A DNA stretch of 64,000 nucleotides from an uncultured Verrucomicrobiota bacterium (GTDB taxonomy: Bacteria > Verrucomicrobiota > Kiritimatiellia > RFP12 > UBA1067): contig CAMNLW010000001.1 in the NCBI GenBank assembly GCA_946544115.1, forward strand, positions 16,392 to 80,391. The letters run 5' to 3'. Positions 11,304 through 56,612 of the stretch are shown piece by piece. Within the stretch, counting starts at the first letter, position 1. Each line of letters begins with the position of its first letter. The position numbers and the translations under genes are program-made. The notes beneath the pieces were generated by a model. It did no database searches. It was not told the DNA's origin and saw only the letters and a program-made list of their open reading frames with translations.

Positions 11304-11783
11304 ATGATGAAACGTACGAGACAGGGCCTCGTGGCGTATGCGTTTGCCGCATGCGCTGTGTTGTCGTTTGCGTTTTTGGGCTGCAGCCGCGATGAAGCGG
11401 CGCCGCCTGCGGAGCCTTCCGCCGCGCCTTCCGCGGCGGCCGAGGCCGCTCCGTCTGCCGAGCCGGTGAAGGTCGTGTCCCGCCTCGCAGACCCCGCCTA
11501 CAAGACGGCGCTCGACGGACAGGCGGCCGACAGGGCGGCTCTTCTCAAGACGCGCGACGGCGTGGCGGCGAAGATGCGCGGCATGGTGAACGCCGCGCGC
11601 GCGCGCCTCGCGACCGATGACGAGGCGGCCGTCACCGCCGAGCTGGAGAAGGATCCCGAATGGGCGGGCCTGCGCGCGCGTATCGCCGATTTGAACAAAG
11701 CGCTCGAAGACAACCGCCGCAGGTCTGCCGAGGTCGTGCGCCGCAAGATTTCATCCGAAACCAAGGAAGTCAATTTGAAATGA
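11304..11783 (+). CDS. small lipoprotein (159 aa), Ala/Pro-rich linker plus helical C-terminal part
   Basis: Lipobox-like signal MMKRTRQGLVAYAFAACAVLSFAFLG-C, then a PAEPSAAPSAAAEAAPSAEP linker. It sits between the two giant genes. Its stop overlaps a possible ATG of the next gene (ATGA at 11780-11783). Confidence 0.7.
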   Translation: MMKRTRQGLVAYAFAACAVLSFAFLGCSRDEAAPPAEPSAAPSAAAEAAPSAEPVKVVSRLADPAYKTALDGQAADRAALLKTRDGVAAKMRGMVNAARARLATDDEAAVTAELEKDPEWAGLRARIADLNKALEDNRRRSAEVVRRKISSETKEVNLK

Positions 11784-11794
11784 GGAACGAAGCC

Positions 11795-14700: not shown

Positions 14701-17700
14701 GATCGCCCGCCCGACCGAGGAGCAGGCGGCGATAACCAACACCACCGTCAAGGTATATTCGCCGTTCTCCGTCGACTACCAGATCGGTGAAGAGGTCCGC
14801 GCCGACCTCGACAGGGGTGTGAAGGCCGAGCTTATCGTCGACGGCGACACAATCGCCACCGAGGACGTGACCGACACTCGCAAGCACACTTTCGCCAACA
14901 AGGTCGAGTTCACTTCGGGCGGACTCCACACCGTGACCGTCGTCTTCACCGACAAGGACGGCAACAGCGGCGAGGACGGCGACTCCAGCGAGCCGCGCAC
15001 TATGCTCTATGACGTGCTCTCCACCAAGAACGTGATGGTTGCGGCGCACGGCCCCGGGGCCTCGCGCGTCTCGGCCAACGGCCACTCCGTTCGCTACGCC
15101 AAGGCCAAGGGTCTCGGCGCGGGCCGCGTCGACGGCGAGCAGAACCCGCAGAGCATCAAGTCGTGGGTCTCGACCTACGCGGTCTCGGCCTCCGAATCGG
15201 GGCTCAACATGACGGCTCGCGGCTACCAGGCCGCCGACCCGCTCAATGACACGATCGACGCTTTCGGCAACACGCGCGGCACCGCCGACAGCTTCTCCTA
15301 CACCAACAACGTCGGCGTGGGCATGATGGGTTACGACAGCTTCTTCTACGCGTGGACGTGCAACAACTCCAAGCCGTCCGACGGCATCGAGCTTGCGAGC
15401 GACCTTCTCATAGCCCCAGGTCTCGCGGGAGAGTATGAAATCCCGCTCCAGCCCTACGACAAGGAGAAGACCACCTACGACAACCAGTACTGGGAGGCGA
15501 TCTTCTCGCGCGAATGGCGCAAGACCGACAACCTCGGCGATATAAACGCCGACGGCGTGCCTGATATCTTCGTGGCGCTTTACGACTTCGGCGTGATCAA
15601 CCGCACGACCTCGACGGTTCTTGACGGTGACGACATCGCCCCGCTCAACGACTACAACGAGGACGGCGACTTCTACGGCGCGACCACCAACGCCGAGCAG
15701 AAGTTCACCGCGCGCATGGAGATTCGCGGTCTCCACGACGGCCTCAACTACGGCATGTTCCCCGTTACCGACACTGAAGGATGGATTTCCGAGCTGGAAC
15801 TCGGCCCCGCGGAAAAAGCCGCGCTCGACCGCTGCCTCGCGGCGAAGATCGAAGACGGTTCCTGGACCGGCACCAACGCGTTCGACCTCGCGACGGCGCA
15901 GGGCCAGGCCGATGCGAAAGCCTTCATAACCTGGACGTGGCGCGAATACGTCGAGGGCGACGCCTCCACATGGGGCTTCACCGTCGAGAACCGCACAGAT
16001 CCCACCAAGGAGGATACCGACGGCGACGGAATGCCCGACGGCTACGAGTACTACTGGTGGTACGCCGCAACGATCGGCAGCAAGGACGACGGCACAGGCC
16101 TCGCGACCGGCAAGGCGTTCAACCTCGCCGATCTCGACAACCCGACCGACATATCCCCGGCCGACATCGCCAGGATATACAACCCGAACGCCAGCATCGA
16201 CTGGACCAAGCAGGATACCGATAACGACGGCCTCACCGACTACGAGGAACGCGCCATCGGGACCAATCCCGTCAACTGGGACAGCGACGGCGACGGATTG
16301 AGCGACCTATACGAGGTCATGTGGTCCATCGACCCGCTCAAGAACCAGAACGGTGTCAACGGCGCCATGAACAACGATCAGGACTTCATGGCCTTCGCCG
16401 ACGTCGGGTCGTACACCATCTACAAGCTGGGCAACGGCTCGTGCTATGCGTTCAAGCTGCCGCCGACGGTCGAATCCGGCGAGGGCGGCACTAACACCGT
16501 GCGCGGCGCGTACCTCGCGGTTCTGCCATACAACGGCAAGTACATCCCCGCGACGGAGATGGTCACCGAGAGGCTGCTTGATGGCTCCTACGGCGAATTT
16601 ACATATGTCGACGGCGATGCGACGACAGTAACCTATGGCTCTGTCGCGCTTTACCACTACCAGGTCTACAACCGTTTCGGCTTCGATCCGCGCACCGGCT
16701 GGTGGAAGGATTCCGCCAACGGCACGGTCTCGCGCACGACGCGCTGGCTTGACGGCGGCAGCCCGCTGCAGGCCGGCACGCCGGTGAACACCATGCCGTT
16801 CACCGCGCGCGACGAATTCATGCTCCTCAAGTACCGTTATCTGCTCGGGTTGAGAAATCTTGCCGATGATCAACGCAAGCTCGCTGCCGAGGAGACGACC
16901 ATGGCGGCGATTCTCGCCGGCGGGTGCACCAACCCGAACGCCGTGAAGGACAGCTGGAGCTGGCCCTTCGGCGACAAGGCCGTCAGCTACCCGACGACCC
17001 ACGGCGCCGACACCGACGTCGACGGCGTGCCGGACGGCTGGGAGCTTTATGTAGGCGTCAACCCGAACGTTCCCTTCACGAGCAACAACGAGGGTCTCTA
17101 CAACGTGATTCGCGATACCGACAGAGAAGACGGCCTTGCCCTTCTCGCCGAGTACGCCGGAACCGACACATGCGGCAACTATGACGAGGGCGGCGCGAAC
17201 TGCCCGTCGATATACGCCAACCATCCGAGCGAGGCTTCGGGCTGCATGCCCGGCTGGTTCAACAAGTTCATGCCTACCGATCCGCGCGACGACGATACCG
17301 ACGGCGACGGCATCAAGGACGGACAGGAGGGCCAGAGCTGGAGCGGCATCTACACGATGAACCGCTGGGGCCAGCGCGTGAGCGAAGTCGCCGCGAGGAC
17401 GGTCAAGCACTTCTCGATCTACGGCAGCCCGACCAACGCCGTCTCGCGCTGCATCCAGGGCGGCGGCTACAACCCGTGCACGATCGATACCGATGGCGAC
17501 ATCCTGCCCGACCCGTGGGAGCGCCAGTACGCGGGTCTCCTCTTCCACGGCAACAACATCTCCACGGAGGGCGACTACAAGGTGTTCGGAGTCGCAGGCC
17601 CGCCTTCCTCGGAGTTCTTCGACGACATCCGCGCGGCGGTGACGGCCAACTTCACCACCAACACGTCCGGCTGGCGCGTCCTGATGGGCATGGACGGCAC

Positions 17701-20700
17701 TAAGGCCGACGCGACGGCCAACACGGTCATCGGCGACCCCGATATGGACTGGGACGGCGACGGTCTCCAGAACTGGCAGGAGTACATGGTCCAGGCGATG
17801 CGCCACCTGCGCTATGACGACAGCCGCACGCCTCTCATGGGTATGGACATGCCCGCCGTCGACTATGACGCCGGGACGATCGTGCCCGGCCAGTGGAACG
17901 GCCCCGGGGAGTATCTTAGGATAAGCTACACCGAGCCGCTCGTCGGCTCCCAGATCGACAAGGTCGCCGAGCTCGGCTACAAGAACTTTGCGAAGTATGT
18001 CGAGTCCAACCCCGACTACTTGAGGACCCTCGGCTACTTTGCCGAGCCCCCGAAAGAGTGGGATATCCAGCGTATCGACCGCGGCGAGCTCTACATGCTC
18101 CCGCCGACGGTCGAGCAGGATCGGGTGGCGACGATGGAATACCAGCACCAGAAGTTCGATGTTGATCTTGACGGTCTTCACCTTGTCTGGGATGAGGACG
18201 GTTCGGAATGGGTCGATCCTGTTCCGGTGGTGGATTTGGACACAATCCTCTCCGATGAAGATGCTCTAATCGACATCATTACAAATGCCTATGTGTACGG
18301 GACGGGCAGCGTTTCCAACAACGTCACCTCTACCGGAACTACCTGGTACTACCTTGAGGTCGATGACGAGGACGGCGAGGAATACGCCTACTATGTGACG
18401 CCAAAGTACGAAACGACGTCCCATACCATTAAATCCGTCAGAAAAACAAAGGCCACCGGCTACGTCGGCACCGACCCGCGCCTGTGGGATACCGACTTTG
18501 ACGGCATGGACGATTTCTACGAGCTCTACCACGGCTTGAACCCGCTTCTCGGAAGCATCGGCTCGCTTGCCACGGTTACGAATGCTGAACTCGGCACAAG
18601 CTACACGACGATCGTGGGCGCGCACGATGTAATCGGCAGCACTGTACCGAACGTCAGCGCCTGGCGCAATGCGTGGACAGGCTGGGAGAATACCGACACT
18701 CCGCCTTACGATCCCATCCGATTCCCGTGGATGATGGGCGTTGGCGACTGCGATGCCGACGGCGACGGCCTCAGAAACTATGAGGAAATGTTGCTCTCCG
18801 ACATCACCCAGCCCGGTGCTACCCACACCGACCCGACGCCGCTGTGGATGACCGACAACACCCACGATATCCGCTACGAGCCTGTCGTAACCGCGATCAG
18901 CATCACCAACTACCTCTATACGGCAGACGGCAAGCCGGTTTATGTCAAGGTAAACGGCGAGCGACAGCGCAAGATTCGCGATGTAACCGAGAGCGTGATC
19001 ACCAATTCCATGATTACGCTTGTAAAGGGACCGTCCTACACCCAGCTTTACTATCCGTGCGAGGTATGGCCGCTCATCTGGCTCAACGCGGGCTACAATT
19101 ACATGGCTTCGTTTGAAGTCAACGAGGGCTATGACAGCGATAACGATATGCGCGGCGACCGCCTTGAGCAGATCAAGACCGCCGAGCCTTCGAGCGATCC
19201 GCTGCACTTCGGCGACCCTTCGCGCCGCCAGAGCCTCTGGCTTGGCGGCCAGGACGACCCGGGTCTGGCGATTACCGTCATGCCGGCCGAGCGCGAAACC
19301 AACGGCAACGACCTCTTCAAGCAGTTCACGGTCGAAGCGTGGGCCAAGCCCGAGACGCTCGCCGCAGGCCACGACCAGTGCATCGTGAGCCGCTCCGTCC
19401 TCTACGGCGGCTGGGACATCGAGAACTCCAACACTGTCGTCCGCTGCAACTTCGCGCTCGGCATCGACGCCGACGGCTGCATATACGCCGGCTTTGACGA
19501 TTCTACCGATGGTTCGATTCGCGCCACAGGTTCTAAGCTTGACGACGGCGAGTGGACTCATCTTGCCGCCACCTACGACGGTGAAAAGATAACGCTTTAC
19601 GTGAACGGAATCCCCGTCAAGCGCGACGCAACGGCGAAGATTCCCGCGAACGGTCTCATATCGCTCATTCAGGATCCGCAGTATGATGGAGGCTTCCCCT
19701 ACATCAACTACCGCACCGAGCCCGGTGCTGTGGCTGTTGGCGGCCGTGCGACCGGCCCGGCGGCGTTCGCCTACAACCTTACAGCCAAGGCGACGTCGTG
19801 GAATGAGGTCGCGGACGACTTCTTCGGCGGCTGGGTCGACGAGGTTCGCGTGTGGGACGGCGCCCGCACCGATGCGCAGATTCTCGCCGAGTACAAGACG
19901 CGCTTTGACGCCGACAAGGCCAAGGAGCTGCGCGATGGCATCTATCAGGAATACCGTGAGCGCAGGACGCGCGCCGGAACTGCCGGTGCCGAGCAGATGT
20001 CGGCCGAACTGGTGATGCACTATGACTTCACGACCCTCGGCGGCGCGCCAGAGGCGACCAACGCCCAGCGCATACCGGGCGGCTTCGAGGCGCAGGTTCT
20101 CGACAAGGTTGTCAATCCTTCGACCGGCTCGGCAATCGACCAGTCTGCCATCGAGGTCGGCTGGTGGAGCAAGGTTCAGAACAACGAGGCGGTTGCTTCC
20201 AAGGTCTACACCTCCAAGCACTATGTGCCTTGGATAGAGAACACCGTAGCCCACCTGCCGCCGCTCAGCGGCAGGGTCATGGACAGCGTTTACTGGAACG
20301 AGAACTACGCCGGTTACACCCCGGCATCGTTCCACGGTATCGACTCCTACACCTTCCCGAACTCTATGACGCCTTACAACTGGACCGTCCAGCACGGCGA
20401 GGCGGATTATCTCTGGAAGAAGCTTCGCAAAATCGAGAGTGCCACCAACGAGACGGAGCGCGCCCACGGCGCCATAACCGAGGATTCGCCCTACAGGCGT
20501 CTCAGGTTCGACGTCCGCCACGAGTTCGACGAGGTGACCGACCTTGTCCCGCTCGGCAGCGCCTTCCCGAAGCGTATCTCCGAGGATGACGGCGGCAGCT
20601 GGGACGGCGAGGGCGCCGAGGACGCGTGGTCGATAACGACGCGCGAAGGTCTCGACGGCGACAAGAACGGAGACGGAATCCCCGACTGGTACGACGGTTC

Positions 20701-26915: not shown

Positions 26916-27662
26916 ATGAACATCAAGAAGACAATGATTTTTGGTATCGCCGCTTTTGCGGCGGCGGCCGCCGTGGCCGCCACGACGACGCGTTCGTCAT
27001 ACGGGAAGAGGGGGGCGAAGGCCGCAGTCGCCGAGGAGTCCGAGGAAGGTCCTGAGGCGGAGGTGAAGATAGAGCGCTTCCCGATGCTCGGGAGGAGCGC
27101 CACCTTGAACGCGCCTTCTCTTTCTGGCGAGTCCACGATCGGCAATGTATTCACCAAGCCCCGCAAATGGATCGTTCTTGAAGCGAAGTATTCTACGTTC
27201 GACAGGATCGTCGACCAGCTTACATTCACCTGGCATGTGCTTCTCGACACGAGCACGGCGACGACCAAGGACAAGGCGGCTCTCGCCAAGCGCGCGCCGT
27301 ACTCGTACTTCTCGCAGACCGTCACCTACGCCAACATCCCCAAGGGCGCGCATGCCGCGAGCGTCTGCCTGCATCCGAGCTATCTTGAGCAGTTCGGCGA
27401 GCCCAAGGCCGTCGGTCTTGTCATCACGGATGCGAACGGCAAGGTTCTCGCCGGCGACTGCGAAAGCGAGATAAAGGGAATAGCCTCCCATCCGAAGTCC
27501 ATCGACATGGCGTTCTGGAACAACGACGAGATCATGAACAAGAAGAACCCGAAATCCGAATCGGGCGACTTGATGATCGAGCGCCGCCAGGGTCTGCAGG
27601 ACCGTTCCAAGACGATATGGGCGCTTGTAAACCCGAACGACTACGAGCTCGTGATACAGTAA
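26916..27662 (+). CDS. secreted hypothetical protein in the position of Amuc_1102-family pilus-like proteins
   Basis: Signal peptide MNIKKTMIFGIAAFAAAAAVAA. The assignment is by position only: it lies immediately upstream of the PilM-like gene, as Amuc_1102 does in Akkermansia. The track ORF starts at 26889; ATG 26916 has AAGGAA upstream. Confidence 0.55.
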   Translation: MNIKKTMIFGIAAFAAAAAVAATTTRSSYGKRGAKAAVAEESEEGPEAEVKIERFPMLGRSATLNAPSLSGESTIGNVFTKPRKWIVLEAKYSTFDRIVDQLTFTWHVLLDTSTATTKDKAALAKRAPYSYFSQTVTYANIPKGAHAASVCLHPSYLEQFGEPKAVGLVITDANGKVLAGDCESEIKGIASHPKSIDMAFWNNDEIMNKKNPKSESGDLMIERRQGLQDRSKTIWALVNPNDYELVIQ

Positions 27663-27686
27663 ACCCAGCAACGCGGCTTCTATCTT

Positions 27687-29318
27687 ATGGCAAAGAAATT
27701 CCTGACTCTAGACATAGGCGCGGCGACTGTCGCCCTTGCCGAGTACGAGAGCGGCGCGAAAGGCGCGCTGACGCTCCTCAACTACGGCACGGCCCAGCTT
27801 TCCGCGCCGCTCGACTCGGGCGATCCGGCGACGATTCTCGTGCCGGCGCTTATGGACATAGTCCGCGAGAAGGGCATCCGTCCCGGTCCTGTGGCGATTT
27901 CGCTTTCGGGGCAGATGGTGTTCCCTCGCTTCACCGCGATACCGGCCGCCGGCGGGCCGGACAGGTTCGAGCAGATGGTTCGCTACGAGATCGAGCAGAA
28001 TGTGCCGTTCCCGATAGACGAGATGGTGTGCGACAGGCAGATCCTGGGCGACACCGAGAACGGCGACAAGGCTGTGATGATTGTCGCGGCGAAGATCGAG
28101 CAGGTTGAGGCCATAACAGACGCCGTCGCCTCGGCGGGATTCCGTCCCGAGCTGGTCGACGTGGCGCCGCTGGCTTTCACCAATGCCGTGAGGGCTTCGA
28201 CCGGCGGCGACACGAGCTGCGCGATACTGCTTGACATAGGAGCCAAGACCACGTCGCTTGTAATAGTGGAGGACGACAAGGTCTACAACCGGTCGATCCC
28301 GATCGGCGGCAAGAACATCACGCGCGATATCTCGCAGGCGCTGGGCTGCACGGCCGAGGAGGCCGAGGCTCTCAAGATCGAGAAGGGATACGTCTCTCTC
28401 GGCGGTGTCGTCGAGGATGAAGACGAGGTTGCCGACCGCATATCGAAGGTATGCCGCGCGATCATGACCCGTCTTCAGGCCGAGATATCGAGGTCGGTCA
28501 ATTTCTACCGCAGCCAGCAGGGCGGCGGCGCGCCGGTGAAACTATACTTGACCGGCGGAACGGCTCTTCTGCCGCAGGTCGACCAGTTTTTCTCGGAGGC
28601 TCTCGGCATCGAAGTCGAATTCTTCAATCCGTTCGACTTCATAGGAGTCGGTTCGGCCGTGGACCAGGAGGCGCTCGGGTCCGACGGCGCTCTTCTCGCG
28701 CCGACGGCGGGTCTTGCGCTTCACATGACCGGCGCGTCGCGCTTTGCTATAAACCTTATACCTCCGTCGATCCTCGCAGCTCGCGCCGAGCGCGCGAAAA
28801 TACCTGTTGTCGCCGCCGCATCGGCGCTTTTTGTCGCCGCGCTCGCGCTCGTTTTCGTCGGCATCGGCCGTCAGTCCGAAGTCCTTGAAGCGCAGTATGA
28901 CGGCGTCGAGGCCAAGGTGAACGTGCTGAAGGGCTTCGAGACGAAGCTCAAGGCCGCAGAGAAAGGTGTTGAGGAGGCGCAGGCCTCCGCCGATGCGATA
29001 AAGGACCTTCTTGCGCGCAGGTATGCAGCTTCGGCCCGCTTGAGCGCCGTGCGCGGAGCCTTGGGACAGGGCATGTGGATCGAGAAGTGGGAGCCGGGCC
29101 GCGTCACCATGCGGGGATGGAAGGACAATCTCGACGTGATGACCGCCATACATGCAGAGCAGCACAACGGCAAAAAGCAGACGGCGTCTGAAATAGTCGT
29201 TGCGAAGCTCAAGGCGAACATCGCGGTCGTTCCCGAATCGGTTCGCATAGCCGATATGACCGCGCTCGGCAAAGATGCCGCGCTCGAGCAGTTCACAGTG
29301 GAGGTTAAGTTCAAATGA
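27687..29318 (+). CDS. PilM/GspL-like actin-fold pilus assembly protein with a C-terminal TM and periplasmic coiled region (Amuc_1101-type)
   Basis: N-terminus FLTLDIGAATVALAEYE, plus ILLDIGAKTTSLVIVED and LYLTGGTALLP (actin-like ATPase motifs as in PilM/FtsA). A TM helix IPVVAAASALFVAALALVFVGIG follows, then a PilN-like tail. Confidence 0.8.
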   Translation: MAKKFLTLDIGAATVALAEYESGAKGALTLLNYGTAQLSAPLDSGDPATILVPALMDIVREKGIRPGPVAISLSGQMVFPRFTAIPAAGGPDRFEQMVRYEIEQNVPFPIDEMVCDRQILGDTENGDKAVMIVAAKIEQVEAITDAVASAGFRPELVDVAPLAFTNAVRASTGGDTSCAILLDIGAKTTSLVIVEDDKVYNRSIPIGGKNITRDISQALGCTAEEAEALKIEKGYVSLGGVVEDEDEVADRISKVCRAIMTRLQAEISRSVNFYRSQQGGGAPVKLYLTGGTALLPQVDQFFSEALGIEVEFFNPFDFIGVGSAVDQEALGSDGALLAPTAGLALHMTGASRFAINLIPPSILAARAERAKIPVVAAASALFVAALALVFVGIGRQSEVLEAQYDGVEAKVNVLKGFETKLKAAEKGVEEAQASADAIKDLLARRYAASARLSAVRGALGQGMWIEKWEPGRVTMRGWKDNLDVMTAIHAEQHNGKKQTASEIVVAKLKANIAVVPESVRIADMTALGKDAALEQFTVEVKFK

Positions 29319-30325
29319 ACAAGTCGAAGATCATACTGGCTTCGGTAGGCGGCGTTGCGCTTACGGCGTCGCTCGTGCTCGCCTATCTGATATGGAGCGC
29401 GATGGCCGACAAGAGCGAGAGGGCGGCCGACCTTGACGGTGCCATCGCAACTGCCGACAGGCTTACAAGGCTTCCCGTGTATCCCGGGCCGGACGGAATA
29501 AAGGCCTACAACGCGAATGCCGAGACCTACAAGACATGGCGCGAAGACGCCGTAAAGATCGCTTCGGCCGGCGACATGGCTTTCGAATCTACGACGCCGC
29601 CGGCGTTCAAGGCGTTTCTTGTCGATGACGCGCGCAGGCTTTCGGCTCTGCCGGGAGCAGTCGACGGGAGGCTGGTCAAAGAGGATTTTCCGTTCGGCTT
29701 TAAAGACTACATAACCGGCGGCGTCTTGCCGGCCCAGGCCGATCTTGCGCGTCTGCAGCGGGAGTGGTATGATGTGTCGACCGTGATCGAGGCGCTTGCA
29801 AAGTGCGGCGTGAGCGAGGTTGTCGACGTGACCATCAAGCCGCCGACCCCGGTCCAGCCCGAGCAGACGGCCAAGAGCAGTAAAAAGAACAAAGGCAAGA
29901 AGCCCACCAAGGTGGAAAACAAGGATCAAGATCCGGTCGTGACGTGCTTCACTGTCGACTTCCGCACGCGTCCGGCAGGACTTGTCAACGCCATCAACGA
30001 GTTCATCACGTCTTCGCGCTTTGTCGTAGTGGACGATTTCTCTTTCACGCGCGAAAAGGACGATATCGCCGAGGCCATCGGCGGCGACGGCAAGAAGCAG
30101 CAGGAGTCGCAGCCTCGCGGCCGCCGCGGCCGCCGCGGCCGTGCGGCCGAGGAGGAAGAGACTCCCAGGCCCGAGGTCGAGAAGGGACAGAGCGTGGTGA
30201 CCGATCCCATGACAGCGTCTCTTTTAAGAGTGTCCATGACATTCTCGGTGTATGATTTCCGTTCGCTTGAGGGCGGCGCGGCGGAAGCCGGCGCAGACGC
30301 GGAGAAATCGGAGGAAGCGAAATGA
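29315..30325 (+). CDS. Amuc_1100-family pilus-like protein (PilO/GspM-position)
   Basis: N-terminal TM helix ILASVGGVALTASLVLAYLIW. Local motifs match my recollection of Akkermansia Amuc_1100:
- TPPAFKAFL vs TPTAFQNEL
- FGFKDY vs LGFQVY
- VIEALAKCGVSEVVDV vs LVNKLAECGLSKFIKV
- FVVVDDFSFTRE vs LFTVNSIRIRNE
ATGA overlaps occur at both ends of the gene. Confidence 0.7.
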   Translation: MNKSKIILASVGGVALTASLVLAYLIWSAMADKSERAADLDGAIATADRLTRLPVYPGPDGIKAYNANAETYKTWREDAVKIASAGDMAFESTTPPAFKAFLVDDARRLSALPGAVDGRLVKEDFPFGFKDYITGGVLPAQADLARLQREWYDVSTVIEALAKCGVSEVVDVTIKPPTPVQPEQTAKSSKKNKGKKPTKVENKDQDPVVTCFTVDFRTRPAGLVNAINEFITSSRFVVVDDFSFTREKDDIAEAIGGDGKKQQESQPRGRRGRRGRAAEEEETPRPEVEKGQSVVTDPMTASLLRVSMTFSVYDFRSLEGGAAEAGADAEKSEEAK

Positions 30326-31434
30326 GTTCACGCATTGGAGGAAATTTCTTTACGGCCCACTACGACTGGATCGTTGCGGGGGTCGCGGTGGTGGCGTTTG
30401 CCTGCGCCGTGGTGTTTTTCACGGGCGCGCTTGAGGAGGACGCCGACGCGCAGACCGCGGCGGCCGTTCGCAGGATAGAGTCGCGCAAGCCCGATGGAAG
30501 CGGCGTGAAGCCTGCCGACATGGAGTGGTATGCGCGGATCACCAAGCTTGCCAAGGCGCCGCTCACCATGAATCCCGTCAATGAAAAAGGCGGCAGTTTC
30601 CTCGCGAGCGACCGTCGCGTGTTCTGCGTAAAGCAGGAATGCCGCGCTCCGATTCCGCCGGCGACGAAGATCTGTCCGTACTGCAACGAACCCCAGCCCG
30701 AGGAGCAGGCGCCGGTCGCGGTGCTCGACGCCGACGGTGACGGCCTGCCGGACGAGTGGGAGCGCAAGTACGGTTTGTCGCCGAGCGATGCTGGCGACGC
30801 CGACGCGGACGCCGACGGCGACGGCTTCACGAACGCCGAGGAATTTGCGGCGGGTACGAATCCGACAGATCGCAACGATCACCCGGACTATCTCGATTCC
30901 ATCAAGATCGCGCTTCCTCTCAAGGAGACGGTGCTGCCTTTCTTCCTGCAGTCGTATCAGAAGAGTCCAGCCGGGATGAGGCTCGACCTCTTCGACCCGA
31001 AGAAGCGCAACGACTACGGAACGCTCGGAAAGTCGTACCTCACGCTCGTCGGCCAGGACGTCGGCGACACTGGCTTCACGGTCAAGAGCTTCGAGAAGAA
31101 GGAGAAGCGCGTCAAGGTCGCCGGCGGCGGCGGCGCGGTGAAATCGGTGGACGTCTCGTACGCAGTCATAGTTCGCAAGAGCGACGGCAAGGAAATAAGG
31201 CTGTCGATCACCGCGCAAGGAAAGCCCAGACGTGTGCCGATCGACGTGCAGGCCCGGCTGCTGTACGAGCGCGGCGAGACGAAGGAGTTCCTGGTGGTGC
31301 CGGGCGATACGATCGACCTAAATGGAACGAAGTATTCAATCAAGGCGATCAACCGCCTGTCCAATGGCGCGTCGGTGACATTCGAGCACTCTACGCTCGG
31401 AACGACGCGGACACTTCAAGCACTTGAATCGTAA
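30322..31434 (+). CDS. membrane protein with a Zn-ribbon-like Cys pairs and TSP3-type Ca-binding repeats (Amuc_1099 position)
   Basis: TM helix WIVAGVAVVAFACAVVFFTG. Cys pairs in CVKQECRAPIPPATKICPYC. DADGDGLPDEWERKYGLSP..DADADGDGFTNAEEFAAGTNPTD. Confidence 0.75.
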   Translation: MSSRIGGNFFTAHYDWIVAGVAVVAFACAVVFFTGALEEDADAQTAAAVRRIESRKPDGSGVKPADMEWYARITKLAKAPLTMNPVNEKGGSFLASDRRVFCVKQECRAPIPPATKICPYCNEPQPEEQAPVAVLDADGDGLPDEWERKYGLSPSDAGDADADADGDGFTNAEEFAAGTNPTDRNDHPDYLDSIKIALPLKETVLPFFLQSYQKSPAGMRLDLFDPKKRNDYGTLGKSYLTLVGQDVGDTGFTVKSFEKKEKRVKVAGGGGAVKSVDVSYAVIVRKSDGKEIRLSITAQGKPRRVPIDVQARLLYERGETKEFLVVPGDTIDLNGTKYSIKAINRLSNGASVTFEHSTLGTTRTLQALES

Positions 31435-31452
31435 CCAAAATTAGAGTATAAT
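31424..31452 (+). promoter_or_regulatory. near-consensus sigma70-type promoter for the secretin gene (TTGAAT-17 nt-TATAAT)
   Basis: The -35 element lies inside the last codons of the upstream gene. The -10 is 35 nt upstream of ATG 31488, with AAGGAG in between. Confidence 0.55.
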
Positions 31453-31487
31453 ACACTCAGACTTTGAACAAGGAGCATGAGATCGTT

Positions 31488-34400
31488 ATGACGAATCTGA
31501 AAAAAACCGCCGCCGTCAGCGTGGCCGCTGCCGTCATTGCCTGCGTACCGTTTGCGTTCGCACAAGACGACCTGGATGACTTGCTGAAAGATCTCGAAAG
31601 CGATCTTGCAGCCGAAACCGCCCCGGCGGAGGCCGTCGCGCCTGCGACAGTTGAAGAGCCTGTCGCCGAGGAACCAACGGCTGAGGAGCCTGTCGCTGAA
31701 GAGCCTGCCGCCGTGGAGCCAGTCGCCGACGAACCTGCACAGGAAGAACCCGCTGCCGAAGAACCCGCGGTCGAGGAACCTGCGCAGGAAGAACCTGCGG
31801 TCGAGGAGCCTGCAACGGAAGAGCCTGCTGTCGTCGCGCCTGCCGCTGAAGAACCGGTTGCGGTTGAACCGGCTGCCGAGGAGCCTGCCGTCGAAGAGCC
31901 TGCTGCGGCCGAACCCGAGCCTGCAGTTGTTGATGCAGGCCCTGTGGCTGTCGCGCCTGTTCCTGCGCCTGCGGCTGCGCCTGTCGATCCCGACGCCGAG
32001 CTTCTGGACAATCTGCGCACTACGGAGCGTCTGCGCCGCGAAGCATATGATGAACAGGCAAAGCGTGAAATCGTTGCTGCCCGCAAGAGCATGTCCGAGG
32101 GCGCTTATGATGACGCCACGCGCGCCTATGGCAATGCGCTCAAGCTTCTCAATGACAGTCCGGCGACCAAGGATCTCCGCCGCGAGTGCGAGCAGGGTAT
32201 TGCCGAGGGGCAGTACCGCCAGGCTCTCGAGGAGGAGCGTCTCGGGCGGCGCGAGAATGCCGTTGAGATGATGGAGAAAGCCAAGGCCCTGCGTCATCCC
32301 AAGGCCCGTCGCCAGCTTGAGGCCTGGAACAAGACGACCGACCCGAACGCCAACAAGACGGCGATCTCCGATGTCCGCCACCGCCGTAACGATGCGGACT
32401 ACAAGGCGCAGCGCGAGAAGAACCGCCGCCACCTGAGGCGCGCGCGCCAGCTCCTGTCGGTAAGGGATATCGACAAGGCTCTTGACGAGTGCGAGCTCGT
32501 GCTTGTGAACGACCCCTACAACCAGGAAGCGATTCGTCTAAGGGGCGCAATCCAGAAGAAGCGCGCGTTGATTCTCAATCAAGAGTTCAATGTGACGCGC
32601 GACGCCATGATCGCCGATGTCGACAAGGCGTGGCGGCCGGTGTATGCGCCAAACGCGCGCCAGCTCGAGGAGTCGGCTTCGTCTACGCTCAAGCGCTCGG
32701 TCGGCGACGATCCCGAGCGTTCGGTGGAACAGTCTATCATCCAGCGCATGAAGGAGATCGTCCTTCCCACGATTTCGTTCAAGCCGCCGGCGACGATTAT
32801 TCAGGCGATTGAAACATTCCGCACCTATTCAAAGGACTTCGACCGCCCCGACATTCCGCTTGAAGAGCGCGGTTTCAACTTTGTCGTGAAGATGCCCGAC
32901 GCGCTTCTTTCCAAAACATCGGAGCAGAGCGCCGACGACTCCGACGATTTCTCGTCGACCGGCGACGAGACCGATTCCAGCCAGGCGGGAGTGCCTATAA
33001 TACCGATGATCACGGCCAACGCCATCAGCTTCTACGACGCGCTCAAGCTTGTGTGCGATTCGGTCGACTACAAGTTCCAGGTAAAGGGGCCTGTCGTAAT
33101 GGTCATGCACAAGGATCAGGCGATCGACGAGATGATCACGCGCCAGTATCCTGTAATGGCCGCCTTCATGGAGAAGATGGATACCGTCTCCAACGATGTA
33201 AAGGAGATGGGGCTCGGCTTCGGCGGCGGCAGGTCCAACAGTCGCGGCGGCGACAGCGAGGAGGAGAACAAGGAGCAGGATTGGAAGGGCGTCTTCTCGG
33301 CTCTTGGTGTCCAGTGGCCCGAAGGCAGCACGATCTTCTATATGAAGGCGACGGGCAAGCTGTATGTCAAGAATACAGAGGAAAACCTTGCCGAACTTGA
33401 AAAGGCGCTTATCGCGCTCAACGCCGAACAGAAGCTTATCGAGATCGAGGCGCGCTTTGTCGAGGTTAGCCAGCAAGACCTCAACTCCCTCGGCTTTGAG
33501 TGGATACTGAACAGCAACTACACCCTCGGCAGCGGCGGCTGGCTCGGTCGCAAGCTCGGCATGAAGAAGGGCGGTTGGGGCGAAGGCTATAAAGCGCAGA
33601 CGCAGCCGATTCCGGTCAAAAACGCAGATGGTACTATTAGTAGTGTTGACACCACAACCTATACTGGCGACGGCAACACCTCGTGGCGCAAGACCGGGCT
33701 TGTCAACGGCACGCCTACGCGTCTTAACAGCGGTATTGCGGGTATTAACTCGATGGGCGGCGAGAACGCCACGTTCGGCGACGTGAACCGCTATCTCTCG
33801 CGCACGGGCAATGCCGTTTCGGGGCAGGACCAGTCGTCCAACGACCAGTTCATGAAGGTGAACGCGTTCCTCGGCTCGGCCGATCTCTCGATGATTCTCC
33901 ATATGCTTTCGCAGCGCACCGACACGGATCTCCTTTCCGCGCCGAAGGTGCTCACGCGCCCGGGTGAGAACGCGGTCATCAAGGTCGTCACCGAGTACAT
34001 CTACCCGACAGACTACAATGTGCAGCTGCAGTCCAGCTCGTCCTCGGGATCCAGTTCGAACGGCGGCAGCCAGTCGGCGATTCTTGCCGTGGTCGAGCCG
34101 GAGCAGTTCGAAACGCGCGAAGTCGGCGTAATCCTCGATGTAACCCCGACGCTCACGGATGACGGCAACTTGATCGACCTCAAGCTTGATACGAAGGTCG
34201 TCGACGAGCCTACATGGAAGAACTACGGTATGAAGATTCCGTATTCCGGCAACAGTTCGTCGCTGCAGAGCTTCGAGGGTATCGGCGAAATCTTCTCGTC
34301 GCTGGCTGAGTTGATCACTGATGTCGGTGGTGAGCTTACGACCAGCACGCGCCAGATGATTGTCGACAACGCTACAAGTTCTGCAATCAGCGCCATGGAT

Positions 34401-34757
34401 TCTCTCTCTGCAACAGGTGAAAAGAACATGACCTATTACGAGGCGCCTATGGAGCAGCCGTTCTTCCACGTTCGCTCGATTGTTTCCTCCGTCTCGATCA
34501 ATCCCGGGTCGACGATTGTCATGGGCGGTCTTATAACCGAGAGCCGTCAGGCTATGGACGACAAGGTTCCGTTCCTCGGCGATCTGCCTTTCGTCGGCAG
34601 GCTCTTCCGCAGCCATGCAGAGCAGACGATCAAGAAGAATCTCCTCATCTTCGTGACGAGCCGTCTTCTCGACGTCCGCGGCCGCGAGGTCGCGGCCGGC
34701 AGTCCCAACGATGGAGAAACGGGCGTCAAGTCAGCGCCTGAGGCTTCGGCGAATTGA
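31488..34757 (+). CDS. secretin (GspD/PilQ family; Amuc_1098-type) with an acidic EEPAx repeat and a helical TPR-like N-terminal region
   Basis: The C-terminal secretin signature is GSTIVMGGLITE...KVPFLGDLPFVGRLFRS...KNLLIFVTSRLL. Signal peptide MTNLKKTAAVSVAAAVIACVPFAFA. The track start is TTG 31464; ATG 31488 has AAGGAG 13 nt upstream. Confidence 0.9.
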   Translation: MTNLKKTAAVSVAAAVIACVPFAFAQDDLDDLLKDLESDLAAETAPAEAVAPATVEEPVAEEPTAEEPVAEEPAAVEPVADEPAQEEPAAEEPAVEEPAQEEPAVEEPATEEPAVVAPAAEEPVAVEPAAEEPAVEEPAAAEPEPAVVDAGPVAVAPVPAPAAAPVDPDAELLDNLRTTERLRREAYDEQAKREIVAARKSMSEGAYDDATRAYGNALKLLNDSPATKDLRRECEQGIAEGQYRQALEEERLGRRENAVEMMEKAKALRHPKARRQLEAWNKTTDPNANKTAISDVRHRRNDADYKAQREKNRRHLRRARQLLSVRDIDKALDECELVLVNDPYNQEAIRLRGAIQKKRALILNQEFNVTRDAMIADVDKAWRPVYAPNARQLEESASSTLKRSVGDDPERSVEQSIIQRMKEIVLPTISFKPPATIIQAIETFRTYSKDFDRPDIPLEERGFNFVVKMPDALLSKTSEQSADDSDDFSSTGDETDSSQAGVPIIPMITANAISFYDALKLVCDSVDYKFQVKGPVVMVMHKDQAIDEMITRQYPVMAAFMEKMDTVSNDVKEMGLGFGGGRSNSRGGDSEEENKEQDWKGVFSALGVQWPEGSTIFYMKATGKLYVKNTEENLAELEKALIALNAEQKLIEIEARFVEVSQQDLNSLGFEWILNSNYTLGSGGWLGRKLGMKKGGWGEGYKAQTQPIPVKNADGTISSVDTTTYTGDGNTSWRKTGLVNGTPTRLNSGIAGINSMGGENATFGDVNRYLSRTGNAVSGQDQSSNDQFMKVNAFLGSADLSMILHMLSQRTDTDLLSAPKVLTRPGENAVIKVVTEYIYPTDYNVQLQSSSSSGSSSNGGSQSAILAVVEPEQFETREVGVILDVTPTLTDDGNLIDLKLDTKVVDEPTWKNYGMKIPYSGNSSSLQSFEGIGEIFSSLAELITDVGGELTTSTRQMIVDNATSSAISAMDSLSATGEKNMTYYEAPMEQPFFHVRSIVSSVSINPGSTIVMGGLITESRQAMDDKVPFLGDLPFVGRLFRSHAEQTIKKNLLIFVTSRLLDVRGREVAAGSPNDGETGVKSAPEASAN
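31653..31922 (+). repeat. 15-nt periodic coding repeat: 18 consecutive EEPAx-type pentapeptides in the secretin
   Basis: EEPVA EEPTA EEPVA EEPAA VEPVA DEPAQ EEPAA EEPAV EEPAQ EEPAV EEPAT EEPAV VAPAA EEPVA VEPAA EEPAV EEPAA AEPEP. Confidence 0.9.
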
Positions 34758-34759
34758 CG

Positions 34760-37354
34760 ATGGTGCGCAAAGTTTCCATACTTTGCATGGTGGCGTCGCT
34801 GCTCTTCTCTTTGAAGGCAGCGACGCCGCTTGTCACACAATACATAGCACCTGTCGATAAACCTACTTGGGAGGACCGCGTACTGACGGGTGAATATGGT
34901 ACTGGTGCAGGTTTCAAATATAGTGCTGTGAAATCGTTATGGGGAGGAAATACATGGTATAATTTTGCGATATTTGTACAAGGTACGGATTTTGCTGATT
35001 CATGTTTTCTTGCATGGTCGAATTGGCTTAGGTTTACGGTGGATGGAAATCAGCTTCCGCTTGATAACCCATACACATGGACCCGTTCTGTTCAATCCAA
35101 AAAGCGGTATCTTTATTATCCGAAATTCAACGCAAGTGGTGCATTTGATAGTTCATCGTCGGCCGGCCACAAAACCGTCAAAACTACCGTAGGAGCGAAC
35201 CTACATCAGTTATTTGATTTGAATGGTTCTGATGCAACTTCTACTGGTGCAGCATACGTGCAGTGCGTCCATACCGACTGGGTTTATAAAGTGACCTTCG
35301 ATGCAAACGGCGGTAGCGGTACTATGGGCAATTTTGTGTTTACGAATTCCGCCGCGCTGCCTGCGAACGCATTCAGCAGAACGGGATATGATTTTTCGAG
35401 ATGGAATACGCGGGATGACGGATCGGGCACGTCCTACGGTGATGAGGCTGAGGTTCAAACGGATATTGATCCTTTACACGCCATCTGGTCTGCGAAGAGT
35501 TACAACATAACATTCTCGGGCGAGGGTGCTACAACCGAAGGAAAGCGCAGCTGCACGGTGAAGTATGACGGGAGTCTTGTTGACATGTCGTCGCCGGATC
35601 TGCCCAAGCGCACGGGATATGAGTTTGGCGGATATTTCTCCAAGCCGGAAGGTAAAGGCAAGCAGTGGTATTCGTCGACAGGGGAAGCCGCCGATGATCC
35701 TTGGAATGTTGCCGGCAATACTACATTATATGCCAATTGGATTGGTGCTGAATATTATGTCACGTATGCTAAAGGCGGCGATGATGTGACGGGAATAATG
35801 GATCGTCAGACTTTCATATATGGTAAGCCGCAGAAGTTGCTTGCGAACAAATACGAGCGTGAAGGCTATAATTTCATCGGATGGTCGGCGCATGAAAATG
35901 CGTATGTTGACTATGTCGATTGTGCGGTGGTAAGCAACCTTACTGACGTAGCCAAGGCAGACATTGTCCTTTATGCCATTTGGGAAAAAATAAAACCGCC
36001 GGAGACGGTTGCTGTAGTGTTTGATGCGAACGGCGGAGTGTTTGCTGCTGAGGCTGCCACCTATGAGCGCAATATCATCCTGGGTGGCAGGTTTGAATCT
36101 CTGCCTATGCCGACAAACGCCAACAATTCTCTGTTCTTTGCCGGCTGGTGGACATCGACAAACCCGGTCGATCGCGTTCAGATACTTTCCACAAACATCG
36201 TCGACGCCGCAATCACCAATCTCTACGCGCGGTGGAAGGCGGTTGTTTCTCCAGATTTGACTTTCAACCTTGCCGACGGCAAAACATTGACAAACGTTAC
36301 AGCCGTCATAGGCGACGAGTTCGGCAGGTGGTTCCTTGATCCTCCGCCGCAATACACTGGCGGTTACAGGCATTTCGGTTGGTACAGGGCAGACGGCAGC
36401 CGCGTTGAAGAGAATGATATCATAGAAGGAGACGAGACGCTGACCGGGCGTTGGACGCTTGGTGCATTCAACGATGCGTGGAACTGCGCGAATGTTCAAT
36501 TTGAAACGAGCGGCGAAAACGTTTCGGGCTGGGCTATGGACGAGACGAACAAGGTCGCGCGAAGCGGTGACGTATCCGGTCTTGGAACTGATGTGGAGGC
36601 AAAATCCTATCTCTTCATGAAGCCGGCGGTTGCAGGAACATTGTCCTTGAAACTTAGAACGTCATGTCTGCCTAAGCTAGATAATCAATGGCTCGCCTGT
36701 CTTGACATCAACAGTGCAACTAATCGTATCGGGGGGCCGGAATCCTGTCGAGACGTAAGCATACCTCTTGACGGCGACGCCACTTTTTATCTGAACTACT
36801 ATCAATTGGGCGGTTACGATAGCGTGGACTATACTGTAGAAGACTGTGCCTGGGCGAGCGACTTCAGCTTTGTGCCCGAAAACCCTCTCTCTGAATGGAC
36901 GGCGCTTGCCGACAAGACGCTTTCGGCGAAGACGGGCGGCTCGGCTCAATGGGTTGTTGCAGACGACGGCGATTCGCTCGTCATAACGAACCTGCCGGAT
37001 GCGCGCTCTGCATGGATCACGCTGGAGACTTCCAAGAGCCGCGCCGGCGTTCTTGAGTTCAAGTGGCGGACAAGCTGCGAGGATGGTTATATCGACACGA
37101 ACGGCGTGTACCAGGTGTGCGACAGGCTGGAGTTCCAGGATGAGCGCGGTGAAAGGACGCTTCGCATTGAAGGCGTGATGTCGGACTGGGAGAGCGTCGT
37201 ATGGACGAACAGCGTCGAGTCGGCTCATACCTTCACATGGCGCTATGTCAAGGACGGCGATGCTTCGGCCGGCGACGACGCGGCCTGGATCAAGGATGTC
37301 AAATGGACTCCTTTCCCGCCGGAGCCGAAACCTTTCCGCGTCCTCATCTGGTGA
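34760..37354 (+). CDS. secreted protein with Listeria-Bacteroides (Flg_new / InlB B-repeat) repeats and two C-terminal jelly-roll-like modules
   Basis: Five to six repeats of the VTFDANGGSGTM..F.R.GY.F.GW type. The C-terminus has two ...FKWRTSCE..D.L.F...W.YVKDG....DDAAWIKDV-like modules. Signal peptide MVRKVSILCMVASLLFSLKA. The track start is TTG 34754, which overlaps the secretin stop. Confidence 0.85.
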   Translation: MVRKVSILCMVASLLFSLKAATPLVTQYIAPVDKPTWEDRVLTGEYGTGAGFKYSAVKSLWGGNTWYNFAIFVQGTDFADSCFLAWSNWLRFTVDGNQLPLDNPYTWTRSVQSKKRYLYYPKFNASGAFDSSSSAGHKTVKTTVGANLHQLFDLNGSDATSTGAAYVQCVHTDWVYKVTFDANGGSGTMGNFVFTNSAALPANAFSRTGYDFSRWNTRDDGSGTSYGDEAEVQTDIDPLHAIWSAKSYNITFSGEGATTEGKRSCTVKYDGSLVDMSSPDLPKRTGYEFGGYFSKPEGKGKQWYSSTGEAADDPWNVAGNTTLYANWIGAEYYVTYAKGGDDVTGIMDRQTFIYGKPQKLLANKYEREGYNFIGWSAHENAYVDYVDCAVVSNLTDVAKADIVLYAIWEKIKPPETVAVVFDANGGVFAAEAATYERNIILGGRFESLPMPTNANNSLFFAGWWTSTNPVDRVQILSTNIVDAAITNLYARWKAVVSPDLTFNLADGKTLTNVTAVIGDEFGRWFLDPPPQYTGGYRHFGWYRADGSRVEENDIIEGDETLTGRWTLGAFNDAWNCANVQFETSGENVSGWAMDETNKVARSGDVSGLGTDVEAKSYLFMKPAVAGTLSLKLRTSCLPKLDNQWLACLDINSATNRIGGPESCRDVSIPLDGDATFYLNYYQLGGYDSVDYTVEDCAWASDFSFVPENPLSEWTALADKTLSAKTGGSAQWVVADDGDSLVITNLPDARSAWITLETSKSRAGVLEFKWRTSCEDGYIDTNGVYQVCDRLEFQDERGERTLRIEGVMSDWESVVWTNSVESAHTFTWRYVKDGDASAGDDAAWIKDVKWTPFPPEPKPFRVLIW

Positions 37355-37365
37355 CGGAGCCGTCG

Positions 37366-37908
37366 ATGAAGCGCGTGGCCATAACGGGCGGCATAGCATG
37401 CGGCAAATCGCTCGTCGCGAAGTATCTGAACGAGATGGGATTCGCGACGGTCGACGCCGATGATATCGCCCACGAGCTCGTTCCTCCAGAGGAGCGCGCG
37501 CGCCTCGCGAAGATCGTGTTTCACGACCCCGCCGCGCGCAAGGCTCTTGAGGCTCGGCTTCATCCGCTCATAAGGCAGCGGCTGCGCGAGCGTATCGCCT
37601 TGGCCGCCCCTGCGCCCGTCATAGCCGTGATCCCTCTCCTCTTCGAAGTGCACTGGGACGAAGATTATGATATAATATGCTGCGTCACGTCGGAGAAGGA
37701 GACGCAAATCTCCCGGATGATGACGACGCGCGGCTACACGCGCGACGAGGCCGAGGCCCGGATAGCGGCGCAGATGCCGCTGAAGGAGAAGGCCGCGAAA
37801 TCCCAATTCGTAATCGCGAACGATGGGTCGCCCGACGACCTGCGCGCGGCGGTTGCGCAGTTTGCGGAATGGCTTGATTCCCAGAGCCACGGCGAGTCTG
37901 AAATCTGA
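37366..37908 (+). CDS. coaE: dephospho-CoA kinase
   Basis: [39 protein letters not shown]. The 180-aa length is typical. The track ORF (37201) extends upstream into the preceding gene. Confidence 0.88.
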
Positions 37909-37996
37909 GAATGAGGCGGGGCCTCGAAACCCCAGACAAACGCCGGGCCGTCGCGGCCCGCGACAAATCAACGATTCGCAAGAAGGAGCGAAAGCA

Positions 37997-39612
37997 ATGT
38001 CAGAAGAACTAGATGTATTCGCCGGCACGACCGCCGCGGCGAAGCAGACCCATCCTGAGGCCGACGCCTCTGCGACCGACGCCGAGGCGCAGCCGTCTCC
38101 CGACACGCCCGCAGATGGCGAGGCGGAATCATCCGGCGCGGGCCGCCAGTACCAGCAGCGCCAGGGAAAGAAGTTCCACAACGGGCGCAAGCAGTACCAG
38201 CGCCAGCAGAAGAACAACTCGCCGATCCGCGGCGCGAACGGCGAAGAATCGGTGAACCCGCTTCTCAATGCGCCGCTGCCTAAAGAGCAGAAGGCTCAGG
38301 AGAACGAGCCGCCCGCGAACCCCAACCGCAACCCCGAGCTGCCCGAGTACCGCCTTGCCGACATCCAGACCTGGCCCGCGCCGCAGATAGTCGAGCGCAT
38401 GATGCCCGGCGCCGATCCCGAGGAGCTCGGCACATACCGCAAGCACGAGCTCATCTTCGCGGCCATAAGGGCGTACCTCAAGAACGGCGGCGCGGTTCTC
38501 GCCTCGGGCTGCCTTGAGATCATGCGAGAGGGCCACGGCTTTCTGAGGTCGGCGAAGAACAACTTTCTCGCCTGCCCGGAGGATGTCTTCGTCACCCAGC
38601 AGCAGATTCGCCGCCACGCCTTGAGAACCGGCGACGTCGTCGAAGGCCCGATACGCGATCCGCGGGACCGCGACCGCTTCTTCTGCCTTGGCGGCGCGAC
38701 GCTCGTGAACGGGAAGGAGCCTTCGGCGGCGGCCCGCGTGATCCACTTCGAAAACCTTACGCCCACCTTCCCGACGAGACGCATCATCCTTGAAACCGCG
38801 CCCGACGAGTTCTCCACGCGTGTCGTCGACATGTTCACGCCCATCGGCTTCGGACAGCGCGGCCTCATCGTCGCGCCGCCGCGCGTCGGCAAGACCGTCC
38901 TTCTCCAGAAGATGGCGAACGCGATAACGGCCAACCATCCTGATGCAATCCTGATCGTCCTTCTCGTGGACGAACGCCCCGAGGAAGTGACCGACATGCA
39001 GCGCAACACCAAGGCGATGGTGCTTTCGTCCACGTTCGACGAAGAGCCCCAGCACCACGTGAACGTCGCTGAAATGGTTATCGAGATGTCGAAGCGCCAG
39101 GTCGAGAACGGCCGCGACGTGGTGATACTTCTCGACTCCATCACTCGTCTCGCGCGCGCCTACAACACCGTCCAGCCGCACTCCGGCAAGATATTGACCG
39201 GCGGTGTCGACGCGCTCGCGCTCCATCGCCCGAAGCGCTTCTTCGGCGCGGCGCGGAACATCGAGGGCGGAGGCTCGCTTACGATCATCGCGACCGGCCT
39301 CGTAGACACAGGCTCGAGGATGGACGAAGTGATCTTTGAAGAGTTCAAGGGAACGGGCAACATGGAACTCGTCCTCGACCGCGGCCTTGCCGACAAGCGG
39401 ATATTCCCGGCGATCGACATCGACAAGTCCGGCACGCGCAAGGAAGACCTCCTGCTCGACCCGCTTGAGCTTGAGAAGACGTGGAACCTCCGCCGCGTCC
39501 TCTCGGACGTCGGCCCCGAGTCCGCGATGAAGAGCGTTCTCAACTCTCTCAAGAAGACGAAGTCCAACCCGGAATTCCTCCTCGCGCTCGACCTCAAGAA
39601 CCTGATGCATTG

Positions 39613-39613
<1 letters not shown>
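37997..39613 (+). CDS. rho: transcription termination factor Rho with a ~117-aa disordered N-terminal extension
   Basis: Near-identical blocks to E. coli Rho: GFGFLRS-like [96 protein letters not shown] lies 8 nt upstream of ATG 37997. Confidence 0.95.
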
Positions 39614-56599: not shown

Positions 56600-56612
56600 C
56601 GGAGGCGACTTG

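Follow-up and report, generated by a model that had tools for sequence, protein, structure and literature searches.

Few probiotic effector proteins have been studied as much as Amuc_1100 of Akkermansia muciniphila, yet the machine to which it belongs is poorly understood. Its gene is part of a cluster, Amuc_1102 to Amuc_1098, which encodes abundant envelope proteins (PMC5332112); Amuc_1100 has been immunolocalised on the outside of the cell (PMC5332112) and is reported to be structurally PilO/PilN-like (bioRxiv 10.64898/2025.12.30.696933). The cluster is now called MUL2, and two recent reports (PMC13174399; bioRxiv 10.64898/2025.12.30.696933) implicate it in mucin acquisition. MUL2 has been traced through the Akkermansiaceae and other Verrucomicrobiales, and our search of the literature returned no paper linking a MUL2-type cluster to the Kiritimatiellota. 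Here we analyse a 64,000 nucleotide stretch of DNA (the window) from an uncultured gut or rumen member of the Kiritimatiellia, which carries a five-gene set that is the counterpart of the Amuc_1102-to-Amuc_1098 (MUL2) cluster. An initial annotation of the window had recognised this gene set, and had described the function of the Akkermansia cluster as unclear, a statement now outdated by the link to mucin acquisition in the two reports. We consider it probable that the set is the Kiritimatiellia orthologue of MUL2, most likely encoding the envelope scaffold and the outer-membrane channel of a type IV pilus-like machine.

Five genes in the order of the Akkermansia cluster

The five open reading frames (ORFs) are designated g1 to g5 in 5′ to 3′ order. 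Transmembrane (TM) and signal segments were taken from a hydrophobicity scan.

26916–27662, + strand: g1, Amuc_1102 (MUL2A) homologue; 248 aa, secreted or periplasmic Ig-like beta-sandwich
27687–29318, + strand: g2, Amuc_1101 (MUL2B) homologue; 543 aa, PilM-PilN fusion
29315–30325, + strand: g3, bitopic Amuc_1100-like protein in the pilO position; 336 aa, one N-terminal TM
30322–31434, + strand: g4, bitopic Amuc_1099-family protein in the pilP position; 370 aa, one N-terminal TM, TSP3 repeats
31464–34757, + strand: g5, outer-membrane secretin, Amuc_1098 homologue; 1097 aa, Secretin PF00263

The ORF coordinates bear out the earlier description of five consecutive genes at 26916–34757, with ATGA overlaps linking the three central ones: all five are neighbours on one strand, the intergenic gaps are at most 29 bp, and the overlaps occur at both the g2/g3 and the g3/g4 junctions, consistent with co-translation of g2, g3 and g4. 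A sigma-70-like match (TTGAAT-17-TATAAT, 31424–31452, + strand, 10 of 12 consensus positions) at the 29-bp gap before g5 hints at a putative internal promoter for the secretin gene; promoter-like matches in the region are no more numerous than expected from shuffled sequence, and this one is a pattern match only.

Comparison with the Akkermansia proteins was made through family models and structures, the Akkermansia gene order being known from the locus-tag numbering and the literature. In the search against the NCBIfam Amuc models that the initial annotation had suggested, four of the genes were matched directly. The secretin g5 aligned with Amuc_1098_fam (NF042912) with an E-value of 1.5e-127 and 427 bits (curated cutoff 750) over residues 177–1076 (model positions 19–803 of 805), and g2 aligned with Amuc_1101_fam (NF045709) with an E-value of 5.9e-120 and 402 bits (cutoff 650) over residues 3–477 (model 5–480 of 608). 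The alignment of g3 with Amuc_1100_fam (NF038287) ran end to end, residues 7–316 covering positions 9–324 of the 326 in the model, at an E-value of 1.2e-15 and 57.8 bits (cutoff 180). For g4 the match to Amuc_1099_fam (NF042425) reached 73.2 bits, over the cutoff of 50 (E 2.7e-20; residues 140–345, model 106–313 of 321). Under these strict NCBI equivalog cutoffs, g2, g3 and g5 count as related to the Amuc families rather than as members of them.

The remaining gene, g1, was linked to its family through its fold and its relatives. The top Foldseek match in the PDB to an AlphaFold2 model of g1 (core pLDDT 85–95) was 7DSZ, the crystal structure of Amuc_1102, with an E-value of 7.4e-8, a probability of 1.0 and a target TM-score of 0.56 over 193 columns; the next match was four logs worse (5.8e-4). 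The sequence identity between g1 and 7DSZ is only ∼19%, and when PDB sequences were searched, Amuc_1102 was found neither by phmmer nor by a 33-sequence profile, fold comparison alone succeeding. Among 33 close relatives of g1 (59–93% identical to it), 14 matched NF042424 (Amuc_1102_rel; Amuc_1102 family pilus-like protein), the best at an E-value of 3.7e-8. Pfam PF28178, named Amuc_1102, is precomputed on all 120 of the 120 g1 homologues listed, including one 95% identical; its assignment to g1 comes through this annotation of the homologues, and its name from a contig look-up of a relative. The N-terminus of g1 is hydrophobic and of the Sec type, and in the related loci the gene always stands beside the PilM-like gene.

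Each of the five proteins is thus a homologue of its Akkermansia family. The links to Amuc_1099, Amuc_1100 and Amuc_1102 are significant and go beyond generic PilM and secretin matches, so that the homology claimed by the initial annotation stands.

Properties of the individual proteins

Over residues 8–346, g2 matched Pfam PilM_2 (E 1.6e-41), with FtsA also matched, and it scored 168 bits against the TIGR01175 PilM model, over the cutoff of 133. A TM lies at about residues 369–397 and is followed by ∼150 residues, predicted to be periplasmic. The earlier description of a PilM-like protein was correct, but with so many residues after it the TM is not C-terminal in the sense of a tail anchor. 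When compared with the PDB, the g2 family profile (A4) matched both M. xanthus PilM (3jc8_M, E 2.5e-67, positions 4–349) and M. xanthus PilN (3jc8_N, E 8.5e-10, positions 355–487), and for this reason g2 is, on profile evidence, a PilM-PilN fusion made up of an actin-like domain in the cytoplasm, a TM and a domain in the periplasm. Such a fusion also has the architecture of GspL. Weak Pfam matches in the parts of the g2 relatives that follow the TM were to PilN (9 of 31) and to T2SSL (8 of 31), and no GspL was found by the family profile in the PDB at E≤0.01.

Pfam PF28028, named Amuc_1100, is precomputed on homologues of g3, one of them 99% identical, and the sole PDB matches of the g3 family profile were the Amuc_1100 entries 6lad and 6kny, at an E-value of 0.024; phmmer with g3 itself against the PDB gave only noise. 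In a Pfam search of the g3 relatives PilO was not matched, the only recurrent weak match being the GspM-type family T2SSM_b (4 of 31 relatives, best E 0.0029). It is reasonable to regard g3 as the alignment protein in the pilO position.

The Asp-rich TSP3_bac repeats of g4 (Pfam, E 4e-11) are of the calcium-binding type. In the AlphaFold2 model, residues 194–368 contain 15 strands, so that the C-terminal half is rich in beta structure. There is no cysteine near the N-terminus, and a TM anchor is present instead of a lipoprotein signal. N-terminal to the region aligned by the Amuc_1099 model are four cysteines, C102, C107, C118 and C121, which are invariant in 32 sequences and form a motif resembling a zinc ribbon. 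We note that this motif is predicted to be on the side of the TM facing the periplasm, an odd place for a zinc ribbon, and that one g4 homologue has been named a ‘RING-HC finger protein’ by NCBI. From its position and topology, g4 may have a PilP/GspC-like bridging role.

That g5 is a secretin is clear from its match to PF00263 (Pfam, E 6e-31). Its best PDB matches to the two kinds of secretin are about equal (PilQ 6w6m, 8.6e-15; GspD 6i1x, 2.4e-14), and its best generic NCBIfam match is GspD, at 1.1e-35 (123 bits, cutoff 351), with PilQ at 5e-33. The N-terminus has a signal-like segment, and the true start is probably the ATG at 31488, which would give a cleaner signal peptide. Residues ∼45–175 are a low-complexity stretch rich in Pro, Glu and Ala, with a weak Extensin-like match, which lies outside the Amuc_1098 model alignment and is followed by faint TPR-like matches.

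Conservation of the gene set and its neighbourhood

Species-representative genomes were scanned with a diverse g2 alignment, giving 573 relatives, and the best 80 of these 573 provided the loci for analysis. Nearly all of the 80 are metagenome-assembled genomes (MAGs) labelled Kiritimatiellae or Kiritimatiellia, with some labelled Lentisphaerae, Victivallales or Verrucomicrobia; they derive from rumen, gut, sediment and lake, and the closest is 74% identical. A cluster look-up of ten distant PilM-like representatives returned only Kiritimatiellia and Lentisphaerota names. Median identity across relatives was 55% for g5 and 53% for each of g2 and g1, which makes g1 one of the best conserved genes of the set, and was lowest for g3, at 35%.

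A survey of gene order, suggested in the initial annotation, was carried out by tblastn with the window proteins. There was room for five genes in 56 loci, and in the 43 where all five were detected their order and strand were identical without exception, under the labels Kiritimatiellia, Lentisphaerota or Verrucomicrobia. In the other 13, which are mostly more distant, only g3, g1 or (twice) g5 went undetected, and g2 and g4 are still separated by a gap of suitable size.

The conservation extends to the genes downstream, which in the window are:

37201–39613, + strand: coaE, within the ORF 37201–37908 (TIGR00152, 116 bits, cutoff 65), and rho, 37823–39613 (Rho domains)

In 34 of 38 related loci, rho is found no more than 7 kb downstream of the secretin gene. 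In the Akkermansiaceae, the neighbours of MUL2 are given as a secretion channel protein, dephospho-CoA kinase and rho (PMC13174399). Since coaE and rho are neighbours in both the Akkermansiaceae and the Kiritimatiellia, the synteny spans phyla. Gene order and the coaE-rho neighbourhood are thus conserved across many genomes of the Planctomycetes–Verrucomicrobia–Chlamydiae (PVC) group. One close relative, L001, reads giant protein, ackA, pta, kpsF-like, Amuc_1102, PilM, Amuc_1100, a 367-aa gene, secretin, coaE, rho and uvrA, and the window shares this context, with ackA-pta-kpsF upstream and coaE, rho and uvrA downstream.

Further upstream, beyond ackA-pta-kpsF, the window contains two giant and mostly unannotated ORFs, at 443–11242 (3599 aa, Gly_rich_2) and 11660–23638 (3992 aa, Laminin_G_3 and TSP3). 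L001 has a 4002-aa Laminin_G_3 protein in the matching position, which shows that the upstream neighbourhood is conserved as well. Between the secretin gene and coaE, the ORF 34754–37354 (probable start ATG 34760, 3 bp after the secretin stop) encodes a protein of 864 aa with a signal peptide and Listeria-Bacteroides (Flg_new) repeats. Its GC content is ∼51%, compared with ∼61% in the surroundings. L001 has nothing at this place, and weakly similar repeat proteins follow the secretin gene in L012 and L019. The gene may be a recent insertion, or its product may be a cargo or an adhesin. Finally, four loci of the Kiritimatiellia type (L004, L016, L029 and L045) occur in records titled Anaerovoracaceae, Muribaculaceae, Lachnospira hominis or Clostridiales, and are probably mis-binned or mislabelled MAG contigs.

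Comparison with the Akkermansia cluster and with type IVa pili

The window cluster and MUL2 of Akkermansia have the same five families in identical order on one strand, with coaE and rho downstream. In both, the gene for an Ig-like protein comes first, the PilM-like protein extends through a TM into the periplasm, two bitopic proteins and a secretin follow, and pilins and motor are encoded elsewhere. The differences are that the host belongs to the Kiritimatiellia, counted as a PVC phylum other than Verrucomicrobiota, and that the sequences have diverged, as seen in the three missed equivalog cutoffs and the low identity of g1 to 7DSZ. In addition, the window g4 has an extra module, the four-Cys zinc-ribbon-like motif upstream of the Amuc_1099-model region, the window secretin has an extra N-terminal stretch of ∼130 aa (rich in Pro, Glu and Ala), and the gene for the 864-aa repeat protein separates the secretin gene from coaE.

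With the pilMNOPQ genes of type IVa pili (Myxococcus xanthus, Pseudomonas aeruginosa), the cluster shares the M-N-O-P-Q order with the secretin last, significant similarity to PilM and PilN, bitopic inner-membrane proteins encoded by the middle genes, and probable translational coupling. Given the PilM-PilN fusion in g2, the cluster reads Amuc_1102-like, pilM/N, pilO-like, pilP-position and pilQ. Unlike the type IVa genes, however, PilM and PilN form one polypeptide, the protein in the pilO position can be recognised only by its likeness to Amuc_1100, with a faint resemblance to the GspM type, the protein in the pilP position is TM-anchored and carries TSP3 and Cys4 modules with no detectable PilP fold, and an extra Amuc_1102-like gene precedes the set.

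A GspF/prepilin locus downstream

The initial annotation also reported that pilins and GspF are encoded 18 kb away, and proposed that the two loci may form one apparatus. The downstream locus comprises:

52885–54201, + strand: GspF/PilC platform protein (T2SSF E 1.8e-64; TIGR02120 GspF 384 bits, cutoff 424; PilC 383 bits)
54202–55353, 55356–55979, 55979–56599, 56610–57431, 57434–58012 and 58009–58521, + strand: six prepilin-type genes, with N_methyl motifs, GFTL[VL]E
58993–62115, + strand: 1040-aa ORF with a pseudopilin-like hydrophobic N-terminus and no family match

The locus starts 18.1 kb downstream of the cluster, in agreement with the earlier figure, but its prepilin-type genes number six and not five, as the one at 57434–58012 (MKFMKNRPGFTLLEV...), which falls between annotated pilin-like genes four and five, had been missed. 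The pilin-like proteins were matched through their N-terminal methylation motif only; several also gave faint matches to ‘Verru_Chthon cassette’ proteins C and D. The genes between the cluster and this locus are of housekeeping type (rho, uvrA, nth-like, rmuC, feoB, L,D-transpeptidase and RNase D-like). Among the best 80 of the 573 relatives, gspF lies within 10 kb of the cluster in only one locus, so the proximity seen in the window is not a conserved feature. The nearby locus is real, but its linkage to the cluster is not conserved and housekeeping genes lie in between, so that a single apparatus made from the two loci is plausible but unproven. A scaffold and secretin need a platform, motor and pilins from elsewhere, and the downstream operon is a reasonable candidate for supplying them.

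Discussion

As an alignment complex and secretin of a pilus-like machine, the cluster is well accounted for in g2 and g5 and reasonably so in g3; for g4 the assignment is positional only. The suggestion of the initial annotation that the Amuc_1100- and Amuc_1099-like proteins are inner-membrane alignment components is thus sustained in part, by the PilM-PilN nature of g2 and by the weak T2SSM_b and Amuc_1100 matches of g3, but the PilP/GspC identity of g4 found no fold or profile match. In such a machine, the actin-like PilM domain of g2 would lie under the inner membrane, covalently joined to the TM, coiled coil and periplasmic domain of a PilN-like part; with the last of these, g3 would pair in the manner of PilO or GspM. 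The TM-anchored g4 would bridge to the periplasmic domains of the secretin, as PilP or GspC would, its TSP3 repeats acting as a spacer. The Sec-exported and highly conserved beta-sandwich g1 could either assist the machine from the periplasm or be one of its cargoes. Motor, platform and pilins, which the cluster lacks, would be encoded elsewhere, some of them perhaps in the GspF/prepilin operon. If Akkermansia is a guide, the machine would probably serve the cell in attaching to complex glycans or in acquiring them.

Several results weigh against this assignment. Three of the four matched NCBIfam models (those for g2, g3 and g5) scored under their curated equivalog cutoffs, and g1 itself had no direct NCBIfam match, even at E≤10. 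The C-terminal part of the window's own g2 was not matched by Pfam PilN, the PilN evidence being at the level of the family, and hhalign of the g2 family against the g3 family gave no PilN/PilO-type paralogy (probability 1%). No PilP, GspC or otherwise informative match to g4 was obtained from PDB profile searches, from relaxed Pfam scans or from Foldseek, the last being a weak test with a model pTM of only 0.47. Neither a GspE/PilB ATPase, among the annotated genes, nor a prepilin peptidase was found in the window, and the separation of gspF from the cluster in the related loci counts in the same direction.

The components shared by type IV pili and type II secretion systems (T2SS) raise the alternative that the cluster and the GspF/pseudopilin operon together form a T2SS which exports glycoside hydrolases and similar enzymes, with g2 as GspL, g3 as GspM, g4 as GspC and g5 as GspD. 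The GspL-like architecture of g2, the weak T2SSL and T2SSM_b matches among the g2 and g3 relatives, and the anchoring of g4 by a TM, as in GspC, rather than by lipid, as in PilP, all fit such a system. The secretin scores about equally as GspD and PilQ, with GspD slightly ahead among the generic models, and downstream there are gspF, with TIGR02120 GspF as its top match, then several short genes of the prepilin type and one large gene like that of GspK. However, the GspF and PilC scores of the platform protein are equal, and the T2SS models that were matched fell short of their curated cutoffs (GspD 123 against 351 bits, GspF 384 against 424). Neither GspE nor GspC turned up in the window, and there was no significant match to GspE, to the HR domain of GspC or to GspL. 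The strong matches are instead to PilM, over its TIGR01175 cutoff, and in the PDB to type IVa PilM and PilN; the gene order is that of pilMNOPQ and not of gsp. Furthermore, the two loci are unlinked in 79 of 80 relatives, and the Akkermansia literature ties the locus to uptake or attachment and not to export. We regard a T2SS as unlikely.

More doubtful still is a machine without classical prepilins, in which the fibre would be polymerised from g1 or from the Amuc_1100-like protein, or one of these would be displayed on the surface as a subunit. This matches the original view of the Akkermansia products as ‘pili-like proteins’, and draws on the place of g1 as the first gene of the cluster, always beside the PilM-like gene, as well as on the immunolocalisation of Amuc_1100 outside cells (PMC5332112). 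The signal peptide of g1, however, is of the Sec type and not that of a class III prepilin, and the protein has no hydrophobic pilin helix. Its conservation (median 53%, against 35% for g3) would be unusual for an exposed fibre subunit, g3 keeps its N-terminal TM anchor and has relatives with weak GspM-type matches, and PilM-PilN scaffolds work with prepilin filaments. A coincidental resemblance to the Akkermansia order, in which only generic PilM and secretin domains are shared, might be suspected from the several sub-cutoff NCBIfam scores and from the failure of phmmer to match g1 and g3 to Amuc_1102 and Amuc_1100 in the PDB. It is refuted by the family-specific matches of all five proteins and by a synteny that includes coaE-rho; with HMM E-values down to 1e-127 added to the synteny, chance is ruled out.

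The type IV pilus-like scaffold and channel remains the reading we prefer. What is new here is its extension to Kiritimatiellia- and Lentisphaerota-labelled genomes, together with the explicit PilM-PilN assignment. The gain is incremental, in that NCBIfam and Pfam already include curated models of the families, the resemblance of Amuc_1100 to PilO/PilN has been published, and wider conservation in the Verrucomicrobiales has been reported.

More speculatively, the Amuc_1102-to-Amuc_1098-type set might be an ancestral, PVC-wide type IV filament machine serving general glycan capture or uptake, and not a mucin-specific trait of Akkermansia; we offer this as a tentative possibility. It would form a distinct subtype, marked by the fused PilM-PilN, a PilO analogue of the Amuc_1100 type, a connector that binds calcium and zinc, and a dedicated Ig-like partner exported by Sec, and kept beside coaE and rho from the Akkermansiaceae to the Kiritimatiellia and Lentisphaerota. 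If so, Amuc_1100, the therapeutic ‘outer-membrane pilus protein’, would really be an inner-membrane alignment subunit. The alignment with pilM/N-O-P-Q gives each Akkermansia protein a concrete, testable assignment, and the presence of the five genes with coaE-rho in Kiritimatiellia- and Lentisphaerota-labelled genomes argues for an old and general envelope machine of the PVC group over an adaptation to gut mucin.

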